A stretch of DNA of 64,000 nt from Gammaproteobacteria bacterium (lineage in GTDB: Bacteria > Pseudomonadota > Gammaproteobacteria > SZUA-229), in NCBI GenBank assembly GCA_029881275.1, contig JAOUMX010000001.1:38949-102948 (forward strand). The letters are read 5' to 3'. The notes below the pieces were generated by a model, which was given only the letters and a program-made list of their open reading frames with translations, made no database searches and had not been told where the DNA came from. Shown piece after piece: positions 1,835-44,661 of the stretch (its first letter is position 1; the number at the start of each line of letters is the position of its first letter). Position numbers and translations under genes: made by a program.

Positions 1835-4381
1835 ATGGCCGAATTTGCCAAAGAAATATTTCCTGTCAATTTAGAAGATGAAATGCGCCAGTCCTACCTT
1901 GATTACGCCATGAGTGTAATCGTAGGCCGAGCATTGCCTGATGTGCGTGATGGCCTTAAACCGGTTCATCGTCGTGTGCTTTATGCCATGAGTGAGCTGG
2001 GTAATGACTGGAACAAGCCTTATAAAAAATCAGCTCGTGTGGTCGGTGATGTTATCGGTAAATATCACCCCCATGGTGATTCAGCTGTTTATGACACTAT
2101 TGTTCGCATGGCTCAGCCTTTCTCTATGCGTTATATGCTGGTTGATGGTCAGGGTAACTTTGGTTCGGTTGATGGTGACGCGCCTGCTGCAATGCGATAC
2201 ACCGAAGTTCGTATGGCTAAAATTGCCCATGAAATGCTGGCGGATATCGATAAGGAAACCGTTAACTTCGAATCCAATTATGATGGCTCAGAGTCTGAGC
2301 CTACGGTTTTTCCGGCGCGTGTTCCCAGTTTACTGGTTAATGGTTCTTCAGGTATTGCGGTGGGTATGGCAACCAATATCCCGCCTCACAATCTGACCGA
2401 GGTCATTAATGCCTGTATTGCGCTAATCGATGATCCTGCTATTTCCATTGAAGGCCTTATGGACCATCTGCCGGCACCGGATTTGCCCACAGCGGCGATT
2501 ATCAATGGTGTGTCAGGGATTAAAGAAGCCTATAGAACGGGGCGTGGACGCATGCATATGCGTGCTAAAGCAGAAGTTCTCGGTGAGGAAGGTGGCAAGC
2601 AAACCATTATTGTTCATGAATTGCCCTACCAGGTGAACAAGGCTCGATTGATTGAGCGTATTGCGGAACTGGTAAAAGACAAGAAAATTGAAGGTATCAC
2701 TGAAATAAGGGATGAATCAGACAAAGACGGTATGCGTATCGTCATTGAGCTGCGCCGTGGTGAAGTTGGTGAGGTTGTTCTTAATAATCTCTATAAACAA
2801 ACCCCTATGCAATGTGTGTTTGGCATAAACATGGTTGCCCTGGTTGATAATCAGCCGAGATTGCTGAACCTGAAGCAGATTCTGGATGCCTTTGTCCGCC
2901 ATCGTCGTGAAGTGGTTACCCGGCGTACCATATTTGAATTACGTAAGGCTCGTGACAGGGCTCATATCCTGGAAGGCCTGGCACTTGCATTGGCGAATAT
3001 TGATCTGGTTATCGAACTGATTAAGAAGTCGGCAAATCCTGCCGATGCCAAGGTGCAGTTAATTGAAACTTGCTGGCAGCCCGGTATGGTTGTCGATATG
3101 CTCAAACGTGCCGGTGCAGAGGCATCACGCCCCGAGTTTCTTGAATCCCGATTTGGTCTCAAGACAGAGGGTTACTATTTGTCAGACGTTCAGGCGCAGG
3201 CTATTCTGGATTTAAGACTGCATCGTTTAACAGGACTTGAACAGGACAAAATACTCAATGAATACAAAGAGATACTTGATATTGTTGAAAATTTGCTAGA
3301 TATTTTGTCAAATCCAGATCGTCTCTTACAGGTAATCAGAGATGAGTTGCTGGAAATCAGAGACAAATTCGGAGATGAGCGTCGTAGTGAAGTTATCGTC
3401 TCGCAGCTGGATTTGAGCATGGAAGATCTGATTACAGAGGAAGATGTACTGGTAACCTTTTCTCATGAAGGTTATGCCAAATCTCAGCCGTTAACCGATT
3501 ATGCAACGCAACGTCGTGGTGGTCGTGGTAAATCAGCGACACGCATGAAAGATGAAGATTTCATTGATAAACTTTTCGTGGCCAATACCCATGACACATT
3601 ATTGTGTTTCTCCAGCAGAGGTAAAGCTTACTGGATTAAGGTTTATCAATTGCCGCAGGCCAGTCGCGGTTCACGCGGCAAGCCGTTGGTTAACCTGTTA
3701 CCGCTGGAAGATGGTGAGCGCATTAATGCAGTTCTGCCGATTCGTGATTACGATGAAGATCATTTCATCTTTATGGCAACCAGCTCAGGCACAGTAAAGA
3801 AAACATCATTAATGAATTTCTCTCGCCAGCGAGCAGGTGGCATTATTGCTGTTGATTTGAGAGATGATGATACTCTGGTTGATGTGGCTTTGACGGATGG
3901 TTCAAAAGACATCATGCTGTTTGCCACAACAGGTAAAGCAATTCGATTCTCGGAAAAAGATGTGCGAGCGATGGGTCGTACTGCAGCAGGTGTTCGTGGT
4001 ATCAAGCTGGCTGAAGATCAGAAAGTTATGAGCCTGATAGTGGTTGATGATGAGGCAACGATTCTGACGACAACTGAAAATGGTTATGGCAAACGAACTG
4101 CGGCATCAGATTATCCCTGTAAAGGTCGTGGTGGTCAGGGCATTATTTCAATTCAGACATCAGATCGTAACGGTCCTGTTATTGGTGCTGTACAGGTGAA
4201 TGATGCTGATGAAATTATGCTCATTACCGATGGTGGTACGCTGGTTAGAACCTCTGTTGAAGAAGTTCGAGTCATGGGGCGTAATACACAGGGAGTCCGT
4301 TTGATTCGTTTGACTGAAGATGAAAAACTGGTTGAAATAGAACGGGTTGAATCACTTGAAGATGAAGATGAAAGTGATTAA
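1835..4381 (+). CDS. gyrA: DNA gyrase subunit A
   Basis: 848 aa. N-terminus '[19 protein letters not shown]', quinolone-resistance-determining region '[20 protein letters not shown]', acidic C-terminal tail 'EDEDESD'. Confidence 0.97.
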
Positions 4382-7835: not shown

Positions 7836-8959
7836 TGATGAATCACTTTCTTAAGATAGCTGTACCTGGCGTTCAACAATTAAAACCTTATTTGCCAGGT
7901 AAGCCGGTAGAAGAGCTTGAGCGAGAACTCGGAATCTCAAATATTATAAAACTGGCTTCTAATGAAAATCCATTAGGTCCGAGTAAAAAAGCACTGGCAT
8001 CAGCACAGTCCGTGATTTCATCCGTTAATTTTTATCCAGATGGAAGTGGTTATAAGTTACGTGCAGCACTGGCTGAAATGCATGGTGTTGCCAATAGTTG
8101 TATTACCTTAGGTAATGGCTCAAATGATGTGTTAGAAATTATTGCCAGAGTATTTCTTGGGCCTGACTATTCGGCGGTTTTTTCTGAATATGCTTTTGCT
8201 GTTTATCCTATTGTGACTCAGGCTGTTGGTGCACAGGCCAGGATTGCCCGTGCATTTCCTGCCAATCACCCTGATATGCCTTATGGTCATGATCTGGAAT
8301 CAATTTCAAAACAGGTTAATAAAACTACTCGGGTTGTTTTTCTGGCTAATCCTAATAATCCGACAGGAACCTGGCTGGACAAAAGTCAATTAGAAATCTT
8401 TATTAGCTCGATTCCCTCTGATGTTATTGTGGTCCTGGATGAGGCCTATTATGAATATATGCCTGATGCAACTAAACCTGATACTGACTCATGGTTAGGT
8501 AAATACCCGAATTTAATAGTTACCCGAACATTTTCTAAAATTTTTGGGCTAGCAGGTTTAAGGGTGGGTTATGCCATCAGTCATCCGGATGTGGCTGATT
8601 TGTTAAATCGTATCCGTCAGCCATTTAATGTTAATCTGGTAGCACAGGCGGCAGCTCTGGAAGCGCTTAAGGATTATGAGCACATTACTAACAGTATCAA
8701 TCTTAATACGGCCGGACTTGAACAGCTGCGTACGGGTTTGCATGATCTTAAATTGAGTTTTATTCCTAGCATTGGAAATTTTCTGACAGTTGATATGGGG
8801 TGTGATGCGAGCATCATTTATAATAAATTGCTTCTGCAAGGTGTGATTGTTAGACCAGTTGCTAATTACAATCTTCCTAACCATCTTCGAATAACTGTGG
8901 GTACTGAAGACCAGAATAATCGTGTACTAAGTGCTTTAGAGAACTGTATGCATGATTAA
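7835..8959 (+). CDS. hisC: Histidinol-phosphate / aromatic aminotransferase
   Basis: 374-aa class-II aminotransferase with PLP-lysine region 'TRTFSKIFGLAGLRVGY'. Position between pheA and tyrA matches the Pseudomonas-type hisC2. Confidence 0.88.
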   Translation: MMNHFLKIAVPGVQQLKPYLPGKPVEELERELGISNIIKLASNENPLGPSKKALASAQSVISSVNFYPDGSGYKLRAALAEMHGVANSCITLGNGSNDVLEIIARVFLGPDYSAVFSEYAFAVYPIVTQAVGAQARIARAFPANHPDMPYGHDLESISKQVNKTTRVVFLANPNNPTGTWLDKSQLEIFISSIPSDVIVVLDEAYYEYMPDATKPDTDSWLGKYPNLIVTRTFSKIFGLAGLRVGYAISHPDVADLLNRIRQPFNVNLVAQAAALEALKDYEHITNSINLNTAGLEQLRTGLHDLKLSFIPSIGNFLTVDMGCDASIIYNKLLLQGVIVRPVANYNLPNHLRITVGTEDQNNRVLSALENCMHD

Positions 8960-9806
8960 TCGTTTATGTATTATAGGTACCGGCTTAATTGGTGGTTCAC
9001 TTGCGCTTGCTTTAAAGAAATCCGGCTATTGTTCTCATATAGTCGGGGCAGGTCGTAATGAAAAGCATTTAAAAAAAGCAGTACAACTCGGTGTAATTGA
9101 TTCTTATGAAACAGATTATGCAACGGCGGTACGTGATGCTGATATTGTTGTAGTTGCTGTACCACTTGGTTCCATGCAGGAAGTATTTGAGCAAATAAAA
9201 CCTTATTTATCGCCCCGTACATTGGTCACTGATGCGGGTAGTGCCAAAATCAGTGTAATTAATGCTGCGCGTCATGTTTTTACCGATGTTAACAAGTTTA
9301 TTCCCGGGCATCCTATCGCGGGTATTGAAAAATCTGGTGTCGAATCTGCATTTGATTCATTATTTCAAAATCGTAAAGTTATTCTGACTCCCTTAGAGGA
9401 GAATGAAGAGAATGATATAGAAATAATAAAAGCTATGTGGCAGGCAACGGGTGCCGAAGTTGATTTAATGGCTGCAGATCATCATGACCTTATCCTTGCA
9501 GGAACCAGCCATTTACCTCATGTGCTTGCCTTTGCGCTGGTCGACTGTTTGAATAATGTCGATGATGTTGATGAGATATTCCGTTTTGCCGCGGGTGGAT
9601 TCCGTGACTTTACGCGAATTGCTTCCAGTGATCCTGTTATGTGGCGTGATATTTGCCTTGGAAATAGTAGTGCTATTCTGACTATGATGGAAAAATATCA
9701 GGAAGAAATTTGTATTCTAAAGGATGCCATCAGATTAGAGGACTCTAATGCGCTGCTGGATATTTTTACACGTGCCAAACAGGCGCGTGACAGGTTTTCA
9801 ATGTAG
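8952..9806 (+). CDS. tyrA: Prephenate/arogenate dehydrogenase
   Basis: Rossmann motif 'IIGTGLIGGSLALAL', 284 aa. Stand-alone protein, not fused to AroA. Confidence 0.85.
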   Translation: MINRLCIIGTGLIGGSLALALKKSGYCSHIVGAGRNEKHLKKAVQLGVIDSYETDYATAVRDADIVVVAVPLGSMQEVFEQIKPYLSPRTLVTDAGSAKISVINAARHVFTDVNKFIPGHPIAGIEKSGVESAFDSLFQNRKVILTPLEENEENDIEIIKAMWQATGAEVDLMAADHHDLILAGTSHLPHVLAFALVDCLNNVDDVDEIFRFAAGGFRDFTRIASSDPVMWRDICLGNSSAILTMMEKYQEEICILKDAIRLEDSNALLDIFTRAKQARDRFSM

Positions 9807-9908
9807 CTTTCTATAATTGCTGTAAGAACTGCTTTTACTGTCTATAATGGTTTACATAAATTAAATCATTATAAATGATGATAGATGACTAGAAGAGTAA
9901 CTTAAAGC

Positions 9909-10910
9909 ATGACAACGTCTGTTCTTATCTGCGATGATTCAAGTCTGGCGCGAAAACAAATGGCACGTTCTTTACCTTCTGACTGGGATGTTGATGTCAG
10001 CTTTGCAGAAAATGGTTTGCTGGGGCTTAAGGCATTAAAAGAAGGTAAAGGTGAGATATTATTTCTTGATCTTAATATGCCGGAAATGGATGGCTATGAG
10101 GTTCTAAATGCTATCCGTGAAAATGAATTATCAACATTAGTGGTGGTTGTTTCAGGTGATATACAACCAGAAGCTTATCAACGTGTAATTTCAATGGGCG
10201 CACTGGATTTCGTAAAAAAACCGGTTGATGCCAGACAGATCCAGGATATCTTTCATAAATACGGAATATATGCTAAGCCGACAATAGATAATCCAGTTAA
10301 ATCTAGAGAAGCAGATTTTGAGGTTAAATATGAAGATGGCTATCAGGAAATTGCTAATGTCGCTATGGGGCGCGCAGCTGATCTATTGGCGCGCTTATTA
10401 AATGTTTTTGTTATCCTGCCAATACCAAATGTTAATATGTTTGAGAATAGCGAATTGCGTATGGCATTGCGTGATATTGCAGACAATGATTCTGTATCGG
10501 GTGTTTGTCAGGGTTTCATAGGGTCTGGTATTGCCGGGGAAGCATTATTGATTTTTAATGATTCCAGTTTTGAAGATATAGCGGAATTAATTAAATATGA
10601 CGGCAAAATTGATGACTCCGTACAACTTGAATTACTCATGGATATATCCAGTATTCTGATTGGTGCCTGTTTAAAGGGGATAGCTGACCAACTGGATGTT
10701 AATTTTAGTCAGGGGCATCCTGTTGTTATAGACAGGCATGTTAAAGTGAATGATCTTCTAAATCAGAATGTATCTCAGTGGAAACAAACATTAGCAATAG
10801 AAATAGCGTATAAAATAGAGAATAAACGTATTAATTGCGAGCTGCTGCTGTTGTTTACTGAGGATTCTATACCTTCTTTAAACCAGCGTATATCTTATAT
10901 AGTAGATTGA
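9909..10910 (+). CDS. Response regulator with N-terminal receiver (REC) domain fused to a CheC/CheX-like phosphatase-type domain
   Basis: REC: 'VLICDDSSLARK...ILFLDLNMPEMDGYEVL...VVVVSGD...GALDFVKKP'. C-terminal half carries the CheC signature 'DGYQEIANVAMGRAADLLARLL' (D-x3-E-I-x-N-[VI]-x2-G-x-AA-x2-L) and a degenerate second repeat 'ELLMDISSILIGAC'. Confidence 0.7.
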   Translation: MTTSVLICDDSSLARKQMARSLPSDWDVDVSFAENGLLGLKALKEGKGEILFLDLNMPEMDGYEVLNAIRENELSTLVVVVSGDIQPEAYQRVISMGALDFVKKPVDARQIQDIFHKYGIYAKPTIDNPVKSREADFEVKYEDGYQEIANVAMGRAADLLARLLNVFVILPIPNVNMFENSELRMALRDIADNDSVSGVCQGFIGSGIAGEALLIFNDSSFEDIAELIKYDGKIDDSVQLELLMDISSILIGACLKGIADQLDVNFSQGHPVVIDRHVKVNDLLNQNVSQWKQTLAIEIAYKIENKRINCELLLLFTEDSIPSLNQRISYIVD

Positions 10911-10914
10911 TAAG

Positions 10915-11889
10915 ATGTTAAAAATTGACATAAAAGAATTTCACTGGATGATGGATATGATTCAGCATCTTGATGTTGGCTTAATTGTTCTTGATAAAGA
11001 ATATAAAGTTAATGTCTGGAATTCTTTTATGGAGAATCACAGTGGTTATACGCCAAATGATGTAATTGGTAAGAATTTATTCGAGGTTTTTAAAAATATT
11101 CCTGAAAGCTGGTTTAAGCGTAAATCCGAATCAGTGTTTTTGCTGAATAATCGTGCATTTACTACCTGGGAGCAAAGGCCTTATTTATTTAAATTTAAAA
11201 ATTATAGACCAATAACAGGCTCAGCTGCTTTTATGTACCAGGATATTACGCTTATACCATTAACATCTGTTGACGGAACTGTGAATCATATTGGTGTTAT
11301 TATTTATGATGTGACAGATATTGCAGTCAATAAATTAGGGCTTAAAGTTGCAAATGAAGAATTAGGAATTCTTAGTCGTACGGATATGCTAACAAAGTTA
11401 TATAACCGTGGCTATTGGGAGGAGCGATTGTTACATGAGTTTTCTCTCCATAAACGAAACAAGCAGGCTGTTTCTCTGGTTATGTTTGATATTGATCACT
11501 TTAAGAAAGTTAATGATACCTATGGACACCAGGCGGGAGATGAGGTGATTAGAGTAACGTCTAAATTACTGATTGACTGTAAGCGCGAAACAGATATCGC
11601 CGGCCGTTATGGCGGGGAGGAATTTGCTGTTATTTTGCTGGATTCGACAGCACAAAACGCATTGCTCTTTACAGAACGTCTGCGTAAGCGAATAGAAGAA
11701 AGCCGTGTTTCAGTCGGCTCAGATTCAATTAAATTTACAGTCAGTCTTGGGATTTCAGATTTAACCGAGAAAACTCAGGATTATGAAGAATGGCTTAAGC
11801 AGTCAGATATGGCATTGTATAGAGCAAAAGAAAGTGGTAGAAATCAGTCGGTCATTTATGATGTAAACCTCAATGGAGCTATAAAATAA
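10915..11889 (+). CDS. PAS-domain diguanylate cyclase (GGDEF)
   Basis: N-terminal PAS-like region followed by 'LTKLYNRGYW', 'MFDIDHFKKVNDTYGHQAGDEV', and an intact active site 'RYGGEEF'. Lies 4 nt after the preceding gene. Confidence 0.85.
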   Translation: MLKIDIKEFHWMMDMIQHLDVGLIVLDKEYKVNVWNSFMENHSGYTPNDVIGKNLFEVFKNIPESWFKRKSESVFLLNNRAFTTWEQRPYLFKFKNYRPITGSAAFMYQDITLIPLTSVDGTVNHIGVIIYDVTDIAVNKLGLKVANEELGILSRTDMLTKLYNRGYWEERLLHEFSLHKRNKQAVSLVMFDIDHFKKVNDTYGHQAGDEVIRVTSKLLIDCKRETDIAGRYGGEEFAVILLDSTAQNALLFTERLRKRIEESRVSVGSDSIKFTVSLGISDLTEKTQDYEEWLKQSDMALYRAKESGRNQSVIYDVNLNGAIK

Positions 11890-12023
11890 AGTTTGTCAGT
11901 ATTCTGCTTACAGAATAAAAATATTTTCATGTTCCCGCTTTTACTGGATGTTATCTTCGCATCCGGCTAATATCCGTTTTTGTAGAATAGCAGCAATTTA
12001 TAGACGTTATTTCAGAGAAATTT

Positions 12024-13346
12024 ATGAGTCAGCTTGATTTTAAAGTTACGGCAGGCGGTGTGCTTAAAGGTAGTCTGCGTGTGCCTGGTGATAAATCTAT
12101 ATCACATCGTTCAATTATGTTTGGCGCCCTTGCCGATGGAACATCTCATGTTACCGGTTTTTTACAGGGTGAAGATAGTCTCAATACATTACGGGCCTTT
12201 AGAGCCATGGGTGTAACAATTGAAGGACCATCAAGTGACGGTAATGTGGTTATTCACGGTGTTGGTATTAATGGCCTGAAACAACCTGATAAGGCACTGG
12301 ATGTTGGCAATTCCGGCACCTCAATGCGATTGATGTCCGGCCTGTTGGCCGGGCAATCGTTTGATGTTGTCCTCTCTGGTGACCGTTCTTTATCTAAACG
12401 CCCGATGAAACGGGTAACGGATCCGCTGGCATTAATGGGCGCGAATGTTGAAACAGAAGACAATGGGCGTCCACCGCTTAAAATCAAAGGTGGCAGCTTA
12501 CTTAAGGGAATTCATTATGACATGCCTATGGCCAGTGCCCAGGTTAAATCATGCCTGTTGCTCGCGGGCATGTATGCACAGGGGCAAACCTGTGTAACAG
12601 AGCCTGCACCCACACGGGATCACACTGAACGTATGCTGACAGCTTTTGGTTATCCTGTTATTCGTAATGGTGACACGATTTGTATTCAGGGTGGTGGTCG
12701 CCTGACTGCCTGTGATATAGATGTGCCTGCAGATATCTCATCAGCCGCATTTTTTATTGTGGCTGCCAGTATTGCAAAAGGTTCTGATCTAACACTATTA
12801 CATGTTGGTATCAATCCAACCCGTACCGGCATTATTGATATTATGAAGCTCATGGGCGCAGATATTGAGTTGTTGAATATGCGTGAAGTGGGCGGTGAAC
12901 CGGTAGCTGATATACGAATTCGTAGTCGTCAGCTAAAAGGTGCCGAGATCCCGGAAAGTCTGGTACCACTGGCAATTGATGAGTTCCCGGTTATCTTTGT
13001 TGCTGCGGCCTGTGCTGAAGGTAAAACGATTATTAGTGGCGCGGAGGAATTGAGGGTTAAGGAATCAGACCGTATTCAGGTCATGGCCGATGGGTTACAG
13101 GCATTGGGTGTTGATGCGCAACCCACAGAAGATGGAATGATTATTCAGGGCGGTTTGATTCAGGGTGGCAAGGTCCATGCCCGTGATGATCACCGAATCG
13201 CCATGGCCTTCACCATGGCGGCTCTCCGGTCACAGGGGGATATTCATATCGAAGATTGCGTCAATGTAAACACCTCTTTCCCGGACTTTGTCGCACTGGC
13301 TAATAGTGTCGGCTTAAAAGTGACTGCAGAGGAGGCTAATTTTTGA
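12024..13346 (+). CDS. aroA: 3-phosphoshikimate 1-carboxyvinyltransferase (EPSP synthase)
   Basis: 440 aa with 'LRVPGDKSISHRSIMFGALA' and 'GNSGTSMRLMSGLLAGQ'. Confidence 0.95.
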   Translation: MSQLDFKVTAGGVLKGSLRVPGDKSISHRSIMFGALADGTSHVTGFLQGEDSLNTLRAFRAMGVTIEGPSSDGNVVIHGVGINGLKQPDKALDVGNSGTSMRLMSGLLAGQSFDVVLSGDRSLSKRPMKRVTDPLALMGANVETEDNGRPPLKIKGGSLLKGIHYDMPMASAQVKSCLLLAGMYAQGQTCVTEPAPTRDHTERMLTAFGYPVIRNGDTICIQGGGRLTACDIDVPADISSAAFFIVAASIAKGSDLTLLHVGINPTRTGIIDIMKLMGADIELLNMREVGGEPVADIRIRSRQLKGAEIPESLVPLAIDEFPVIFVAAACAEGKTIISGAEELRVKESDRIQVMADGLQALGVDAQPTEDGMIIQGGLIQGGKVHARDDHRIAMAFTMAALRSQGDIHIEDCVNVNTSFPDFVALANSVGLKVTAEEANF

Positions 13347-40136: not shown

Positions 40137-41321
40137 ATGAAGACATTTAAAACACTAATTCCTGTTTTGTTTCTGATAGCATTGTCATTTTATGGTTATT
40201 ATAAATATGTTCAATTCCCTTCAGTTATTATAAACGGGATTGTTTTCTTACCTGTTTTTCTAGCTGTACTTGTTGTTGGTCTGGCTATTCATTTTAATCG
40301 TAGTTCGGTTTTCTTTTATGCAGTGACTATCATAATAGCTAACCTCGTGCTTGGGCTGAGCCTGGCCAGTACCGAATTAAGCTATGCATTATTGTCTATT
40401 TTTCTGCCATTATTAATTCCTGTTATAACAATGTTGCCTGAAAGAGGAATAATAAGTGCCAGGGCTATACCCGCATATACAGTATTTTTAATCGCTATTC
40501 TATTTTCTGTTGTAGTGATAATGACTTCAGCAGAATGGGCTAATTATATTTTTCTGACGAACTGGTTACCACCTCGTTATTTTGACTGGACACATCAATC
40601 ACAAACTGTTCTGATCATTTCATTTTTAGCCACTATTTATATGATTGTGCTTTATTTTCTCAGGCCTTCTCCTCATGTTGCTTCTGGATTAGGAATTATG
40701 ATCATGCTGATTGTTCAGTTACATTCTGGTCATGTTAGTAGAAGTCTTAATATATTTAGCAGTATCGCATTTTTCATGTGCCTTTATGCTGTTATGCAGG
40801 AGTCCTGGCGTATGGCATATCTTGATGAGTTAACTGAGTTACCATCAAGAAGAGCTTTGCGTGAAAAGTTTCAAAAAATAAGTGGTTTATATGCTGTTGC
40901 TATGCTGGATGTGGATCATTTTAAGAAATTCAATGATACATATGGTCATGATACTGGTGATGCGGTATTGCGTATGATCGCCACCAAATTGAAGAAGGTT
41001 ACCGGTGGTGGTTCGTATTATCGATATGGTGGCGAAGAATTTACTATCGTCTTTAACGGAAAAAGTACCAATGAAGCAAGGCTCCATCTTGAAAATCTGC
41101 GTGAATTAATTGCAACTACACCTTTTGTTATTAATCGTGCCAGTAGACGAATAAATGATAGAAAAGAAAAAAACAAAAAAAATAAATCCGTGGTGGTTAC
41201 TGTTTCAATTGGCATGGCAGATTCAACTAAAGGCTCTTCATCTCCATGGGATGTAATGAAGTCCGCGGATAAAGCATTGTATCGTGCAAAAGAAAAAGGT
41301 CGAAATTGCCTTTCCGAATGA
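40137..41321 (+). CDS. Integral-membrane diguanylate cyclase (polytopic N-terminal sensor + GGDEF)
   Basis: About 6 TM helices, then 'LDVDHFKKFNDTYGHDTGD' and an intact 'RYGGEEF'. Confidence 0.85.
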   Translation: MKTFKTLIPVLFLIALSFYGYYKYVQFPSVIINGIVFLPVFLAVLVVGLAIHFNRSSVFFYAVTIIIANLVLGLSLASTELSYALLSIFLPLLIPVITMLPERGIISARAIPAYTVFLIAILFSVVVIMTSAEWANYIFLTNWLPPRYFDWTHQSQTVLIISFLATIYMIVLYFLRPSPHVASGLGIMIMLIVQLHSGHVSRSLNIFSSIAFFMCLYAVMQESWRMAYLDELTELPSRRALREKFQKISGLYAVAMLDVDHFKKFNDTYGHDTGDAVLRMIATKLKKVTGGGSYYRYGGEEFTIVFNGKSTNEARLHLENLRELIATTPFVINRASRRINDRKEKNKKNKSVVVTVSIGMADSTKGSSSPWDVMKSADKALYRAKEKGRNCLSE

Positions 41322-42013: not shown

Positions 42014-42979
42014 TTAAGGGATTGGTTTTAATTCTTTTTCTTGAGCAGTTGCTTTAACAAAACCATATTTTTCATAAATGTTTTGCGCCTGGTCAGATAC
42101 CAGGTATGAAAGGTAGCTTTGAGCATTGGATTGATTACGGCCGGTTTTTAATATGCCTATTGCATAGCCAACTTTATCAGACATATTGTAAGGTGCTTCG
42201 ATAGCAACACCTTCAATAGCTCGATTCTCTGATTGCGCATGTTTAACTTCGGTTGTCCAGACAATGCCTACATCTGCAAGATTATTTTCTATACGATGTG
42301 GTGTTTCTCTATGATGGCGAGCGGTAAACCAGGTCTTATCTTTAATTGCCCAGCAACTTTTGCATTTTTGGTCATTAGTAACTTTTTCATATAGGCCGAG
42401 CTGTTTCAGCATTTCCATGCCATAAAATTTGAATATGCCTTCTGTTAATGGGTTTGGGTGCGATTGCACAAGATCATCACGACCTAGATCCATAGCGCCT
42501 TTAATATTTTTAGGGTTTCCTTTTGCAACCATCAATTCCAGTTTGTTGTGAATATAGATAAGATAATCATCCATTTGATTTTTAGATTTCAATGTTTTTA
42601 AATGACCTAGATTAACACTGGCAAATAGATCAGGGTTTTGAGCTGTTTTCTGACCATTAATTTCACCTTGTTTGAGGATCTGACCTTTTAGAATTTGGCC
42701 TGGAGGAATAGTTTCAACATAGACTGTTTTGATATGTTTGTTATTGATCAGGAAATCCTTAATTAATTCTTCCATCACCATAAACTGATTACCAGCCAGG
42801 TACATGACCAGGTCTGCCGTGTAAGAATCGCCTATTTTCCCATAATCAATTTCACCATTACTATGAAAAGTCCGGTAATCATGTCCTTGACCGGCGTCAT
42901 TATCAGCCGCGTACAGCTGTGTTTGAGTCATAGCAAGAAAGAATGTAACCAGAAGGATTTGACGAATTGATTTAATCAT
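42014..42979 (-). CDS. Orphan periplasmic binding protein of the ModA (molybdate/tungstate/oxyanion, type II PBP) family
   Basis: Signal peptide 'MIKSIRQILLVTFFLAMTQTQLYA' with RBS GGAGG. ModA-like blocks 'NPDLFASVN', 'LADVGIVWTTEV' and C-terminal 'AQNIYEKYGF'. No ABC permease or ATPase genes nearby. Confidence 0.65.
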   Translation of the reverse strand: MIKSIRQILLVTFFLAMTQTQLYAADNDAGQGHDYRTFHSNGEIDYGKIGDSYTADLVMYLAGNQFMVMEELIKDFLINNKHIKTVYVETIPPGQILKGQILKQGEINGQKTAQNPDLFASVNLGHLKTLKSKNQMDDYLIYIHNKLELMVAKGNPKNIKGAMDLGRDDLVQSHPNPLTEGIFKFYGMEMLKQLGLYEKVTNDQKCKSCWAIKDKTWFTARHHRETPHRIENNLADVGIVWTTEVKHAQSENRAIEGVAIEAPYNMSDKVGYAIGILKTGRNQSNAQSYLSYLVSDQAQNIYEKYGFVKATAQEKELKPIP

Positions 42980-43149
42980 TTTTTGGCCTCCATGAACCAT
43001 TAAATTAGTTTTCTGGTTTAATGCCAGAAAATTTAGCAGATACTCCAGATATAGATGCACTAACAGTGCTATTTATTCCATTAAACTAATTTTATTTGTG
43101 TAATGATATGTGGCTTGATATGTAAAAAACGGTATATGGAGCCGGGTGT

Positions 43150-44661
43150 TTATGCAAGAGGGAGTTCGAACCAGAAAATACTGCCAGATGCCGGTTCGCT
43201 TTCGACGCCAATAGAACCATTCATTGCTTCAATTAACTGTTTGCTTATATGCAAACCAACGCCGATTCCTGAAATAGTGCCCTGTTTCTGATCTAGTCGT
43301 TCAAAAGGGGTGAACATGAGTGATAGATTCTCTTTGGATATACCAAGACCAGTATCTTTAATTTCGATTCGTAATTTATTATCTGATTTGATAAAACAGC
43401 TAACTATAACACGTCCATGTTCTCTGTTGAATTTTACAGCATTGGTTATAAGATTAATTAAAACCTGACGAAAACATTGTTCATCAGCTTTTACCATCAA
43501 TGTTGTGTCTGTAATTGTGTTATCTATGGTTATCTGATTTATATTGACCATGGTGGTTAGAATTCGAGTAATGCATTCTCGACTTATATTGGCTACGCAA
43601 AGTGATTGAGTATTTATATTTTGTATTTTGCTTTCAATATGTGAAAGGCTGAGAGCTTGATTAATTATATCCAGTAAATGGTTGCCGGCATCAAGAATAT
43701 ATCCTGACCACTCCTGTCGTTCAGATGAATTTGGTGTAACTTGCATTTCCATTAACTGGGAAAATCCAAGGATGGCATTCAGTGGGGTGCGCAATTCGTG
43801 ACTCATGATTTCCAGAAACTGGCTTTTTGCCTGATTTGCATTTTCTGCTTTTATGGTAGCTTTTAAAAGGTTTTGCTGTGACTCTTTTAGTTGTTTTGCC
43901 ATTCTGTTAAACGCAATTGCTAATAGTCCAAGTTCGTCTTCTATTTTCACATCAATTGATGTATCAAAGTTGCCTTTTCCAATTTCGATTGATGTTTTCT
44001 TTAGATTATTTATAGGAATAGAGATACTGCGTACGATTAGAAATGATAGTAGTGCTATTAATATTAATGATATAGCTATTGCTAAAATAGTCGCATTATT
44101 GGCATTCGAAATAATCTGATTAACGGAATTTTTCTTTTCTTCCACTTCTTCTTCTTCTATTTCAATTAATTCACTAAACAGGAGAAATGCCTGGTTCTGA
44201 AATTCGTTTATTTCCTGGAGGATTTCATTCTTATTATTTGAGTCGGTGGTTTCGGTGGTGAGTATTTTATTTACAAAAGCGTTTTGATTGTTAAAGATGC
44301 TGTATTTAGTTATCCATTTTTCCATATTAGGTGCGCAAGGTTCATCTGCGGCTTTTGCTGTATTATAAGCGTCTTTATAGTTGGCTAGTTCAGCGTCAAT
44401 TTTTGTAAGTAGAGTCTGAATTTCATTTTTACTAACACTTTCTTGTGATCTTATGTAATTGGTTAGTTTAGATGATAGATAGGCATGATATGATGACATT
44501 TTTTCACCTGCTCTAAGTGCTAGCAGGGGGTCTTTGTGTAAATAATTAAAGGCATGACCAATACTGTTTAGATTGTTGACGCCAATATAGCCGATAATTG
44601 TCATAGCTATACCGAATATCATGCATAAAATTAATAATTTATGACTGATTTTAATATTCAT
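43150..44661 (-). CDS. Sensor histidine kinase: TM, about 160-aa periplasmic helical sensor, TM, HAMP, HisKA, HATPase; no receiver
   Basis: H-box 'MSHELRTPLNAILGFSQLM', N-box 'LINLITNAVKF', G-boxes 'DTGLGI' and 'GSIGVESEPASGS'. Two hydrophobic helices flank the sensor region. Confidence 0.85.
   Translation of the reverse strand: MNIKISHKLLILCMIFGIAMTIIGYIGVNNLNSIGHAFNYLHKDPLLALRAGEKMSSYHAYLSSKLTNYIRSQESVSKNEIQTLLTKIDAELANYKDAYNTAKAADEPCAPNMEKWITKYSIFNNQNAFVNKILTTETTDSNNKNEILQEINEFQNQAFLLFSELIEIEEEEVEEKKNSVNQIISNANNATILAIAISLILIALLSFLIVRSISIPINNLKKTSIEIGKGNFDTSIDVKIEDELGLLAIAFNRMAKQLKESQQNLLKATIKAENANQAKSQFLEIMSHELRTPLNAILGFSQLMEMQVTPNSSERQEWSGYILDAGNHLLDIINQALSLSHIESKIQNINTQSLCVANISRECITRILTTMVNINQITIDNTITDTTLMVKADEQCFRQVLINLITNAVKFNREHGRVIVSCFIKSDNKLRIEIKDTGLGISKENLSLMFTPFERLDQKQGTISGIGVGLHISKQLIEAMNGSIGVESEPASGSIFWFELPLA

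Follow-up and report, generated by a model that had tools for sequence, protein, structure and literature searches.

The control of a diguanylate cyclase by receiver phosphorylation is known from PleD and WspR, in which a receiver is fused to the GGDEF domain. In the HsbR-HsbA-HsbD system of Pseudomonas aeruginosa, a regulator with a phosphatase-type output acts on the cyclase by way of a partner protein. In the DifG/DifD system of Myxococcus xanthus, a CheC homologue tunes surface and exopolysaccharide output by acting on a CheY-like protein, in a setting other than flagellar chemotaxis. CheX, another protein of the CheC superfamily, can be found in Gammaproteobacteria that also possess CheZ (PMC12887009). 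'CheC-like' response regulators, combining a receiver (REC) with a CheC-type domain, form the REC-CheC class of Galperin's classification, to which the orphan regulators PSPTO1039/PSYR0886 of Pseudomonas syringae belong (PMC2222644). In the literature found on this class, members are catalogued only, with mention of neither a functional study nor an obligatory PAS-GGDEF partner, and literature searches returned no functional study of a pair made of a REC-CheC regulator and a PAS-GGDEF cyclase. On the cyclase side, the structure 3IGN is that of a GGDEF dimer from Marinobacter aquaeolei (nauticus) VT8 bridged by c-di-GMP, and this cyclase is called catalytically active in the title of its paper (Vorobiev et al., 2012, as cited in PMC4215984).

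Such a pair is found in the window, i.e., the whole stretch of 64,000 nucleotides analyzed here, where Pfam and NCBIfam assignments give the flanking array as gyrA-serC-serA-pheA-hisC-tyrA, the cassette, then aroA-cmk-rpsA-ihfB-lapB-pyrF. Two signalling genes had been placed between tyrA and aroA in the original prediction, and all the features named there are present at their positions. The first open reading frame (9909..10910, on the + strand like every feature described below) encodes an orphan response regulator of 333 aa with a receiver and a CheC-type domain. Its stop codon lies 4 nt before the ATG of the second (10915..11889), which encodes a cytoplasmic PAS-GGDEF diguanylate cyclase of 324 aa, assigned with Pfam and NCBIfam. 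Purifying selection is strong on both genes, as seen from dN/dS values versus relatives of 0.04-0.06 for the regulator gene and 0.07-0.10 for the cyclase gene. A search for mobile-element signatures at the cassette yielded no meaningful flanking direct or inverted repeats, only short chance matches, and an Rfam scan of positions 9000-13000 gave no credible match. The preferred reading, with a probability of roughly 0.6, is that an orphan, self-dephosphorylating regulator controls its partner cyclase, the two forming an autonomous cassette that occupies a permissive site between tyrA and aroA.

The receiver domain (aa 5-114; 9921..10250) is recognized by Pfam (PF00072, E=8e-23), and its acidic pocket (D9, D10), phospho-acceptor Asp (D54) and switch Ser/Thr and Lys (S82, K104) are all present, these five residues showing little or no variation among 170 fused homologues. 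It is followed by a flexible, poorly conserved interdomain linker of about 15-20 residues (about aa 123-136; 10275..10316), whose pLDDT stays under 50 when the full-length regulator is modelled with AlphaFold. In that model (pTM 0.64), the linker is disordered and no confident packing between the REC and CheC-type domains was obtained.

The CheC-type domain (aa 139-333; 10323..10907) is delimited by a family profile, an AF2 model and Foldseek. Profile and fold searches were needed because direct scans of the single sequence gave only sub-threshold scores, namely 17.5 bits for CheX against a Pfam cut-off of 27 and 13.7 bits for CheC against a cut-off of 22; NCBIfam likewise gave no above-threshold CheC or CheX match for the C-terminal half. 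A profile built from 28 family sequences matches CheC of T. maritima (1XKR/2F9Z) at E=6e-15 across both halves, and also FliY 4HYN at 3.4e-14 and 3QTA at 2e-7. The AF2 model of the domain (pLDDT 84.7, pTM 0.83) has the CheC-type alpha/beta fold with internal pseudo-twofold symmetry; its best Foldseek match is CheC 2F9Z (E=1.3e-13, TM 0.68), and all 36 PDB matches at E<=0.001 are CheC, CheC-like, FliY, CheX or FliM chains. Stand-alone homologues (~205 aa, E~1e-25) exceed the Pfam CheC/CheX cut-offs. The check proposed in the original prediction, a CheC or CheX HMM hit in this region, thus came out negative in its formal sense, as Pfam stayed below threshold. The profile and fold searches outweigh this outcome, and on their strength membership of the C-terminal domain in the CheC/CheX/FliY family may be regarded as established. 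The first protein is, as had been proposed, an N-terminal receiver followed by a CheC-type domain, on the combined basis of the Pfam receiver, the family profile and the fold match.

The two pseudo-repeats of this domain differ in the state of their active-site motifs. Motif 1 (10335..10427), D143-x3-E147-x2-N150-x22-P173 (DGYQEIAN...P), is intact and fits the family consensus D/S-x3-E-x2-N-x22-P; its E, N and P are each kept in 169/170 fused homologues, and among 66 stand-alone ones they are kept in 56-63. Motif 2 (10629..10721), E241-x3-D245-x2-S248-x22-P271 (ELLMDISS...P), bears out the degenerate second repeat that had been predicted: where the catalytic Glu would be expected, 153 of the 170 homologues have Asp; the Asn of the consensus is retained in 99 and replaced by Ser in 53, and P is conserved. 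A second intact D/S-x3-E-x2-N-x22-P site, as in CheC proper, is absent from the second pseudo-repeat. From its motifs, the regulator is predicted to have a single canonical site, as in CheX, yet on a scaffold of CheC length. Some homologues have a precomputed PF13690 match, and one annotation source labels homologues 'CheY-P-specific phosphatase CheC'.

The second gene had been described as a PAS-GGDEF cyclase with an intact RYGGEEF located 4 nt downstream, a description that holds and to which an RxxD site can be added. Its PAS domain (aa 12-135; 10948..11319), of a distinctive subfamily with the motif FTTWEQRPYLFKFKNYRPITG, scores 33.5 bits with Pfam PAS PF00989 (cut-off 22.6) and 26.5 with PAS_4 (cut-off 23.1), and matches the V. 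cholerae 'Sensor protein' 3MXQ at E=3.5e-22. The GGDEF catalytic domain (aa 156-311; 11380..11847) is found by Pfam at E=2.7e-46 and by TIGR00254 at E=1e-53, and matches PDB 3IGN over aa 148-314 at E=3.9e-52. The A-site GGEEF (aa 233-237; 11611-11625) stands within RYGGEEF (aa 231-237), and the I-site RETD (R224-D227; 11584-11595) lies five residues upstream of GGEEF, with IAGRY in between. The second gene thus encodes what is apparently an active PAS-GGDEF cyclase.

The functional link proposed between regulator and cyclase is supported by their conserved adjacency: of 90 loci across Gammaproteobacteria, 78 have the cyclase gene immediately after the regulator gene and in the same orientation, and more than 1000 such gene pairs are available in all. 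The locus scan behind these numbers used patterns from six closer sequences, the 28-sequence alignment being too diverse. The pair can be found in Thiogranum, Thioalkalispiraceae, Colwellia, Thalassotalea, Agarivorans, Hahella, Oleiphilaceae, Kangiellaceae and others. A homologous PAS module lies downstream of the regulator in nearly all of the 90 loci. In loci that lack the GGDEF domain, a PAS-only protein still occupies this position, 51-64% identical to the PAS domain of the window. Over 78 cassettes, median identity is 64.6% for the CheC-type domain, 63.7% for PAS, 62.7% for REC and 54.7% for GGDEF; conservation and constraint in the cassette are thus highest in the CheC-type and PAS domains. 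Judging from these sequence comparisons, the pair is a putative self-contained, conserved two-gene c-di-GMP signalling cassette, widespread in Gammaproteobacteria.

In the mechanism proposed for this cassette, a histidine kinase would phosphorylate D54. This kinase may be the adjacent Tll0287-like one in sister lineages and would be encoded elsewhere in the genome of the window; an orphan 4HB-HAMP kinase (43150-44661) is among the candidates. Clustering of neighbour proteins within 5-6 kb of the 90 loci revealed no histidine kinase as a conserved neighbour, and the Tll0287-like kinase, confined to the sister clade, was ruled out as a conserved cassette partner. The phosphorylation state could then be passed to the cyclase by contact of the regulator with the PAS domain, a contact suggested by the CheC-type and PAS domains being the best conserved. 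CheC site 1 (E147/N150) would hydrolyze the acyl-phosphate of the protein's own receiver, either in cis or across a dimer, so that the signal would be short-lived and self-resetting, while c-di-GMP would feed back through the RxxD I-site by product inhibition. If the regulator does dephosphorylate itself and gate the cyclase, the cassette would be a simple built-in timer in two-component control of c-di-GMP. A bolder version, put forward tentatively, is that the REC-CheC protein and the PAS module constitute a previously undescribed two-component output, namely a self-resetting timer gating the cyclase via a PAS/CheC-type interface, with another target in the sub-clade that has PAS-only partners and sigma-28-type motifs. 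If true, this would amount to a widespread c-di-GMP pulse generator in marine and sulfur-oxidizing Gammaproteobacteria.

The chemistry assigned to site 1 has a rival in which the CheC-type domain is a non-catalytic adaptor, similar to the FliM middle domain or to the CheD-binding face of CheC, and the receiver gates binding to the PAS-GGDEF protein with no phosphatase chemistry. The degenerate site 2, the occurrence of FliM, of the same fold, among the structural matches, the sub-threshold Pfam CheC/CheX scores and the conservation of the CheC-type and PAS domains, as for an interface, are in keeping with such an adaptor. It is nevertheless unlikely, and catalysis is favored, because the exact site 1 signature D/E-x3-E-x2-N-x22-P, found in 169/170 fused and most stand-alone homologues, is hard to explain otherwise. 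Moreover, in one relative (L095) the REC and CheC-like parts are encoded by separate, overlapping genes, an arrangement that suits an enzyme-substrate pair and, as far as gene organization can tell, supports the receiver being the CheC domain's own partner. The fused receiver and the split REC/CheC genes both lend indirect support to the putative aspartyl-phosphate phosphatase activity.

If catalysis is accepted, the substrate may still be sought elsewhere: the regulator could be an auxiliary chemotaxis phosphatase acting in trans on free CheY-P, its own receiver serving as a regulator or phosphate sink, and adjacency to the cyclase linking swimming to c-di-GMP. The annotation label mentioned above agrees with this, as do the receiver, whose closest sequence similarity is to CheB and CheY receivers, and the finding that CheX works beside CheZ in Vibrio (PMC12887009). 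In the sub-clade with PAS-only partners, a sigma-28-type motif, TAAA-N15-GCCGATA, lies 50-80 nt upstream of the cassette; it has 9 matches in 2.57 Mb, 5 of them upstream of cassettes of this sub-clade. This motif is, however, absent from the clade of the window, no chemotaxis gene is among the conserved neighbours in the protein clustering (5-6 kb, 90 loci), and the universal conserved partner is the PAS module, not a Che protein, which makes action in trans improbable.

The tyrA-cassette-aroA arrangement is restricted to the window and its closest clade (L007/L008, L089, L090), and neither tyrA nor aroA was found within 8 kb of the cassette in any of 80 species-representative genomes. In the sister clade, the cassette is accompanied by the additional, convergent gene for the Tll0287-like histidine kinase, between the cyclase gene and aroA, and in L005 a cassette copy 83% identical to that of the window lies inside a gsp (type II secretion) cluster. 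The comparison of tyrA/aroA junctions suggested in the original prediction shows the insertion confined to the clade of the window, and other cargo or nothing elsewhere: L092 and L107 carry no insert there, L091 has a TonB receptor, and unrelated genes follow in L098-L105, L108 and L109. The boundary gathers different cargo in different lineages, and the placement inside the operon is not conserved among relatives; a cassette that is ubiquitous at this locus and already characterized, the outcome that would have spoken against the original prediction, is not what was found.

Whether the cassette has its own promoter bears on the same point. The spacer upstream of the regulator gene (9807-9908; 102 nt, 26% G+C) contains an exact TATAAT at 9812 and another at 9843. 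In a generic scan, promoter-like sites were not enriched, 11 being found against 11.0 expected from shuffles. The second TATAAT (9843-9848) falls in a promoter-like block, GCTTTTACTGTCTATAAT (9831..9848), about 60 nt upstream of the regulator start codon, which aligns with L090, L089 and L005/L006 with the consensus GCTTT(T/A)A(C/T)(T)GTCTATA(A/C)T. Examined by eye, this block lacks a GG/GC pair at the spacing required for a sigma-54 reading, and its TAAA-to-GTCTATA spacing varies among relatives, so that a sigma-28 reading was also rejected. As the block also precedes the cassette in L005/L006, where the surroundings differ and are those of a type II secretion cluster, a promoter belonging to the pair itself is probable, the function of the block being predicted from this conservation. 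Of the earlier suggestion of a promoter for the pair, the exact hexamers and a conserved block stand, while the number of hexamers is at shuffle level. The weak hairpin noted downstream does exist (11900..11917; 7-bp A/T-rich stem, -5.7 kcal/mol) but is no better than chance (z=-1.18), as 21 of 200 shuffles fold equally well; it fails the terminator scan and is probably non-functional. Further downstream, a block conserved between the window and L007 (11939..11976) contains a hairpin, CTGGATG-N9-CATCCGG (11944-11966), of -10.1 kcal/mol (z=-2.4) in the window and -12.6 (z=-3.15) in L007, and this block belongs to the aroA upstream region, not to the cassette.

The promoter/terminator scan found no terminator-like site between tyrA and the cassette or between the cassette and aroA, so that read-through co-transcription with the array may occur. 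The original prediction went further in proposing co-transcription of the cassette with the serC-...-tyrA-aroA-cmk-rpsA array, tying c-di-GMP to aromatic amino-acid or ribosome-synthesis status, and it is true that the cassette is on the strand of the array, that the insertion has persisted in the clade of the window and that cassette divergence resembles that of tyrA and aroA. This is the least probable of the explanations and is not supported, in view of the cassette being elsewhere in 80/80 species-representative genomes and in the gsp cluster, the variable junction, the convergent kinase gene that breaks a simple operon in the sister clade, the promoter-like block travelling with the cassette and the separate conserved block upstream of aroA. 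The preferred reading takes the tyrA-aroA boundary as one that tolerates insertions and has often been rearranged in this lineage, which would account for the position of the cassette, rather than co-regulation with aromatic amino-acid synthesis. A useful caution is that genes placed within a housekeeping array need not be co-regulated with it.

Compared with the systems described so far, the CheC-type domain of the window shares fold, family and site 1 signature with CheC of T. maritima (1XKR/2F9Z) and Bacillus subtilis. Unlike CheC, it is fused to a receiver, its second site is degenerate (E-x3-D-x2-N/S), and neither a CheD partner nor a che-operon context surrounds the cassette in the 90 loci; in addition, G210-E211 is invariant in the family of this regulator where T. 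maritima CheC has G-S. CheX from Borrelia burgdorferi, Vibrio vulnificus (6VPW) and T. maritima (1XKO) also belongs to the CheC superfamily and has a single working E-x2-N site, as predicted for the domain of the window, but it is a stand-alone dimer of ~150 aa, whereas the domain of the window has full CheC length with both pseudo-repeats, and in Foldseek the TM scores of CheX to the AF2 model (0.5-0.6) are lower than that of CheC.

Unlike PleD and WspR, the cassette has its receiver and its cyclase on separate polypeptides, the cyclase having a PAS domain and no receiver. The output of the Hsb regulator is a PP2C Ser/Thr phosphatase, where the regulator of the window has a putative aspartyl-phosphate phosphatase of CheC type, and unlike the cassette, DifG and DifD are separate proteins in a che-like cluster without a cyclase partner. 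The REC-CheC class (PMC2222644) has the same architecture and is listed among orphan regulators whose output domain is enzymatic; PSPTO1039/PSYR0886 of P. syringae are likened to the regulator of the window by domain architecture. As to the cyclase, the work on 3IGN, as far as it is reported in PMC4215984, concerns the isolated GGDEF domain, without the PAS domain or a partner regulator, while in a Marinobacter-like contig a REC-CheC gene lies directly upstream of the gene for a cyclase closely related to 3IGN, with 91% identity in the part that matches. Since its individual parts are already known, REC-CheC regulators having been catalogued and a homologous GGDEF crystal structure (3IGN) being available, the locus is one more representative of a known kind. 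Beyond this, the comparison reveals an obligate and strongly conserved pairing of the two genes, with the tightest constraint on the PAS and CheC-type domains.

Between gyrA (1835-4381) and tyrA (8952-9806) lie serC, serA, pheA and hisC, in this order, and tyrA is directly followed by two genes which share the same strand and are separated by 4 nt. Gene 1 (9909-10910, 333 aa) encodes a regulator composed of a receiver (REC) and a CheC-type domain, and gene 2 (10915-11889, 324 aa) a PAS-GGDEF cyclase. Then come aroA (12024-13346) and, further downstream, cmk, rpsA, ihfB, lapB and pyrF. The cassette formed by the two genes is somewhat more A/T-rich (36-38% G+C) than tyrA (41%) and aroA (48%), and falls inside the window's own span of 34-47%.

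The receiver occupies residues 5-114 of gene 1 (Pfam E=8e-23) and, since D9, D10, D54, S82 and K104 hardly vary, if at all, among the 170 fused REC-CheC homologues, it should be able to be phosphorylated. The CheC-like domain of the original prediction scores below the Pfam cut-offs when the C-terminal half is scanned alone (CheX, 17.5 bits against 27; CheC, 13.7 against 22), but its relatives, its profile and its modeled fold assign it to the CheC type, which we regard as settled on these grounds. Among 1.8 billion cluster representatives searched, 1063 relatives were found, including stand-alone proteins of ~205 aa (E~1e-25), several of which exceed the Pfam CheC and/or CheX cut-offs. A profile built from 28 sequences matches CheC from T. 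maritima (1XKR/2F9Z) over both pseudo-repeats (E=6e-15), FliY (4HYN; E=3.4e-14) and a haloarchaeal CheC-like protein (3QTA; E=2e-7). The AlphaFold model of the domain (pLDDT 84.7, pTM 0.83) resembles CheC, FliY, CheX and FliM, from which all 36 significant PDB matches originate.

That one CheC repeat is good and the other degenerate was correctly read at the outset. The first repeat has an intact D/S-x3-E-x2-N-x22-P signature (D143, E147, N150, P173), its E, N and P each being retained in 169 of the 170 fused homologues. The second reads E241-x3-D245-x2-S248-x22-P271 in the window protein and mostly E-x3-D-x2-N/S family-wide, so that the acidic residues have traded places and the Asn position varies. 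Because the linker (aa 123-136) is disordered and the pTM is only 0.64, the full-length AlphaFold model is uninformative on the packing of the REC and CheC-type domains. A split form of the fusion is found in L095, where a receiver gene (L095:575-949) precedes and overlaps a gene (L095:927-1577) for a stand-alone CheC-like protein of 216 aa exceeding the Pfam CheC cut-off, suggesting that the CheC-type domain has the receiver as its own partner.

Gene 2 matches the Pfam GGDEF (E=2.7e-46) and PAS (33.5 bits) families, with GGEEF at aa 233-237 and a RETD I-site five residues upstream. Its PAS domain is of a distinctive subfamily common to the V. cholerae sensor protein 3MXQ (E=3.5e-22). A close homologue of the cyclase, from Marinobacter aquaeolei, has had its catalytic domain solved with c-di-GMP bound (3IGN; E=3.9e-52 for the GGDEF domain), and this domain is reported to have catalytic activity (Vorobiev et al. 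2012, cited in PMC4215984). In the Marinobacter-like contig L093, a REC-CheC gene is found immediately upstream of a cyclase that shares 91% identity with 3IGN over the part matched; the crystallized enzyme thus seems to be a member of this cassette family. The REC-CheC gene of this contig (L093:3161-3997, 278 aa) is without the equivalent of window residues ~166-214, either by a true internal deletion or by an assembly artefact.

A word-indexed search returned 5601 homologues of the CheC-type half, many of them named 'CheY-P-specific phosphatase CheC' by one source. Ninety loci were examined, from 80 species-representative genomes and from metagenomic contigs, and in 78 of them an orthologous PAS-GGDEF gene immediately follows the regulator on the same strand. 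The genomes with the cassette include Thiogranum, Thioalkalispiraceae, Colwellia, Thalassotalea, Agarivorans, Hahella, Oleiphilaceae, Kangiellaceae, Zooshikella and others. Of the 12 exceptions, five lie at contig ends or match only in part (L017, L032, L036, L051, L082); the other seven (L002, L013, L015, L016, L019, L021, L079) have a PAS-only protein of ~150 aa that shares 51-64% identity with the window's PAS domain. Across the 90 loci there is no further conserved neighbor, a histidine kinase included. Over the 78 complete cassettes, median identities to the window are 64.6% (CheC-type), 63.7% (PAS), 62.7% (REC) and 54.7% (GGDEF), so that constraint is strongest on the CheC-type and PAS modules. 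The dN/dS of the cassette, measured against the closest relatives, is 0.04-0.10, like that of tyrA and aroA.

Identification of the parts is firm, and from them we infer the following mechanism. The regulator would hydrolyze its own aspartyl-phosphate, a reading suggested by its invariant catalytic motif, by the fusion to a receiver (a separate gene in L095) and by the flexibility of the linker, the alternatives being that the CheC-type domain is a non-catalytic adaptor or that the regulator is a trans-acting chemotaxis phosphatase. Since the PAS partner is universal and the CheC-type and PAS modules are highly conserved, the self-dephosphorylating regulator would control the cyclase via a CheC/PAS interface, and the RxxD site of the cyclase would add product inhibition.

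The coupling to the aromatic operon put forward in the original prediction is the least supported reading: the tyrA-cassette-aroA order is present in the window, but tyrA or aroA lies within 8 kb of the cassette in none of the 80 species-representative loci, and the cargo of the junction varies. Comparison of tyrA-aroA junctions in relatives limits this order to the window and to the clade whose TyrA is closest (75-78% identity; L007/L008, L089 and L090). In L005 (7400-14200), a copy with 83% and 79% identity to the window's two proteins is located between gspF and gspG of a gsp (type II secretion) cluster, accompanied by PIN-domain and rhomboid genes. Within the next TyrA clade (61-69% identity), aroA comes directly after tyrA in L092, as also in L107 (45%), and a TonB-dependent receptor gene (L091:6861-8891) separates them in L091. 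No aroA is found in the available sequence, up to 6 kb, downstream of tyrA in L098-L105, L108 and L109, of which the two annotated ones (L099 and L103) have porins and ABC permeases after tyrA, downstream of 6858. Synteny therefore breaks at the tyrA/aroA boundary, whose contents vary by lineage.

The sister clade has, between the cyclase and aroA, the gene of a convergent Tll0287-like/HisKA/HATPase histidine kinase (L007:6422-7872, L008:6138-7589, L089:4188-5590 and L090:3125-4579, all minus strand), a candidate input kinase there; in L007 and L089 two ORFs are called for it, through either decay or assembly error. The window is without it (absent at 11890-12023), and its 134-nt pre-aroA spacer (33% G+C) aligns with the L007 kinase-aroA intergenic region. 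Within the window, the kinase core most similar to that of the sister-clade kinase (43% over 234 aa) belongs to an orphan 4HB_MCP-HAMP-HisKA-HATPase kinase (43150-44661, minus strand), a weak lead to the input of the window's regulator. A solute-binding protein gene lies alongside (42014-43060, minus strand), and a second GGDEF protein (394 aa; 40137-41321, plus strand) is encoded 2 kb away.

Regarding transcription, the pair had been proposed to have its own promoter. The 102-nt tyrA-gene 1 spacer (26% G+C) contains the exact hexamer TATAAT twice, at 9812 and at 9843, and generic promoter-like and terminator-like sites occur at shuffle level, but L090 and L089 share the block GCTTTTACTGTCTATAAT (9831-9848) upstream of their cassettes, as do L005/L006 in a different genomic context (the gsp cluster in L005), which points to a promoter or operator of the cassette's own. 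The weak hairpin proposed at 11900-11917 folds no better than chance. A different one upstream of aroA (11944-11966, CTGGATG-N9-CATCCGG) beats shuffles in the window (-10.1 kcal/mol, z=-2.4) and in L007 (-12.6, z=-3.15); it lies inside a block (11939-11976) conserved with L007 and absent from the 41-nt spacer of L092, where tyrA and aroA are adjacent. An Rfam search of 9000-13000 gave no credible hit. In a sub-clade with a PAS-only partner, a sigma-28-type TAAA-N15-GCCGATA motif is located 50-80 nt upstream of the regulator gene (L002:5923, L013:7484, L015:4025, L016:222, L019:7482), accounting for five of its nine matches in 2.57 Mb of fetched loci, which hints at a flagellar-regulon link.

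Literature searches found no study of the REC-CheC and PAS-GGDEF pair, and the comparative findings, namely that the pair is obligate, PAS its constant partner and the insertion site variable, are of modest interest. REC-CheC is a catalogued response-regulator class (PMC2222644), and the CheY-P phosphatases CheC, CheX and FliY have been studied extensively (PMC12887009). G210-E211 (window 10536-10541) is a conserved residue pair specific to gene 1's CheC-type family, retained in 168 and 169 of the 170 fused and in 66 and 61 of the 66 stand-alone homologues, whereas CheC from T. maritima has G-S at this position.
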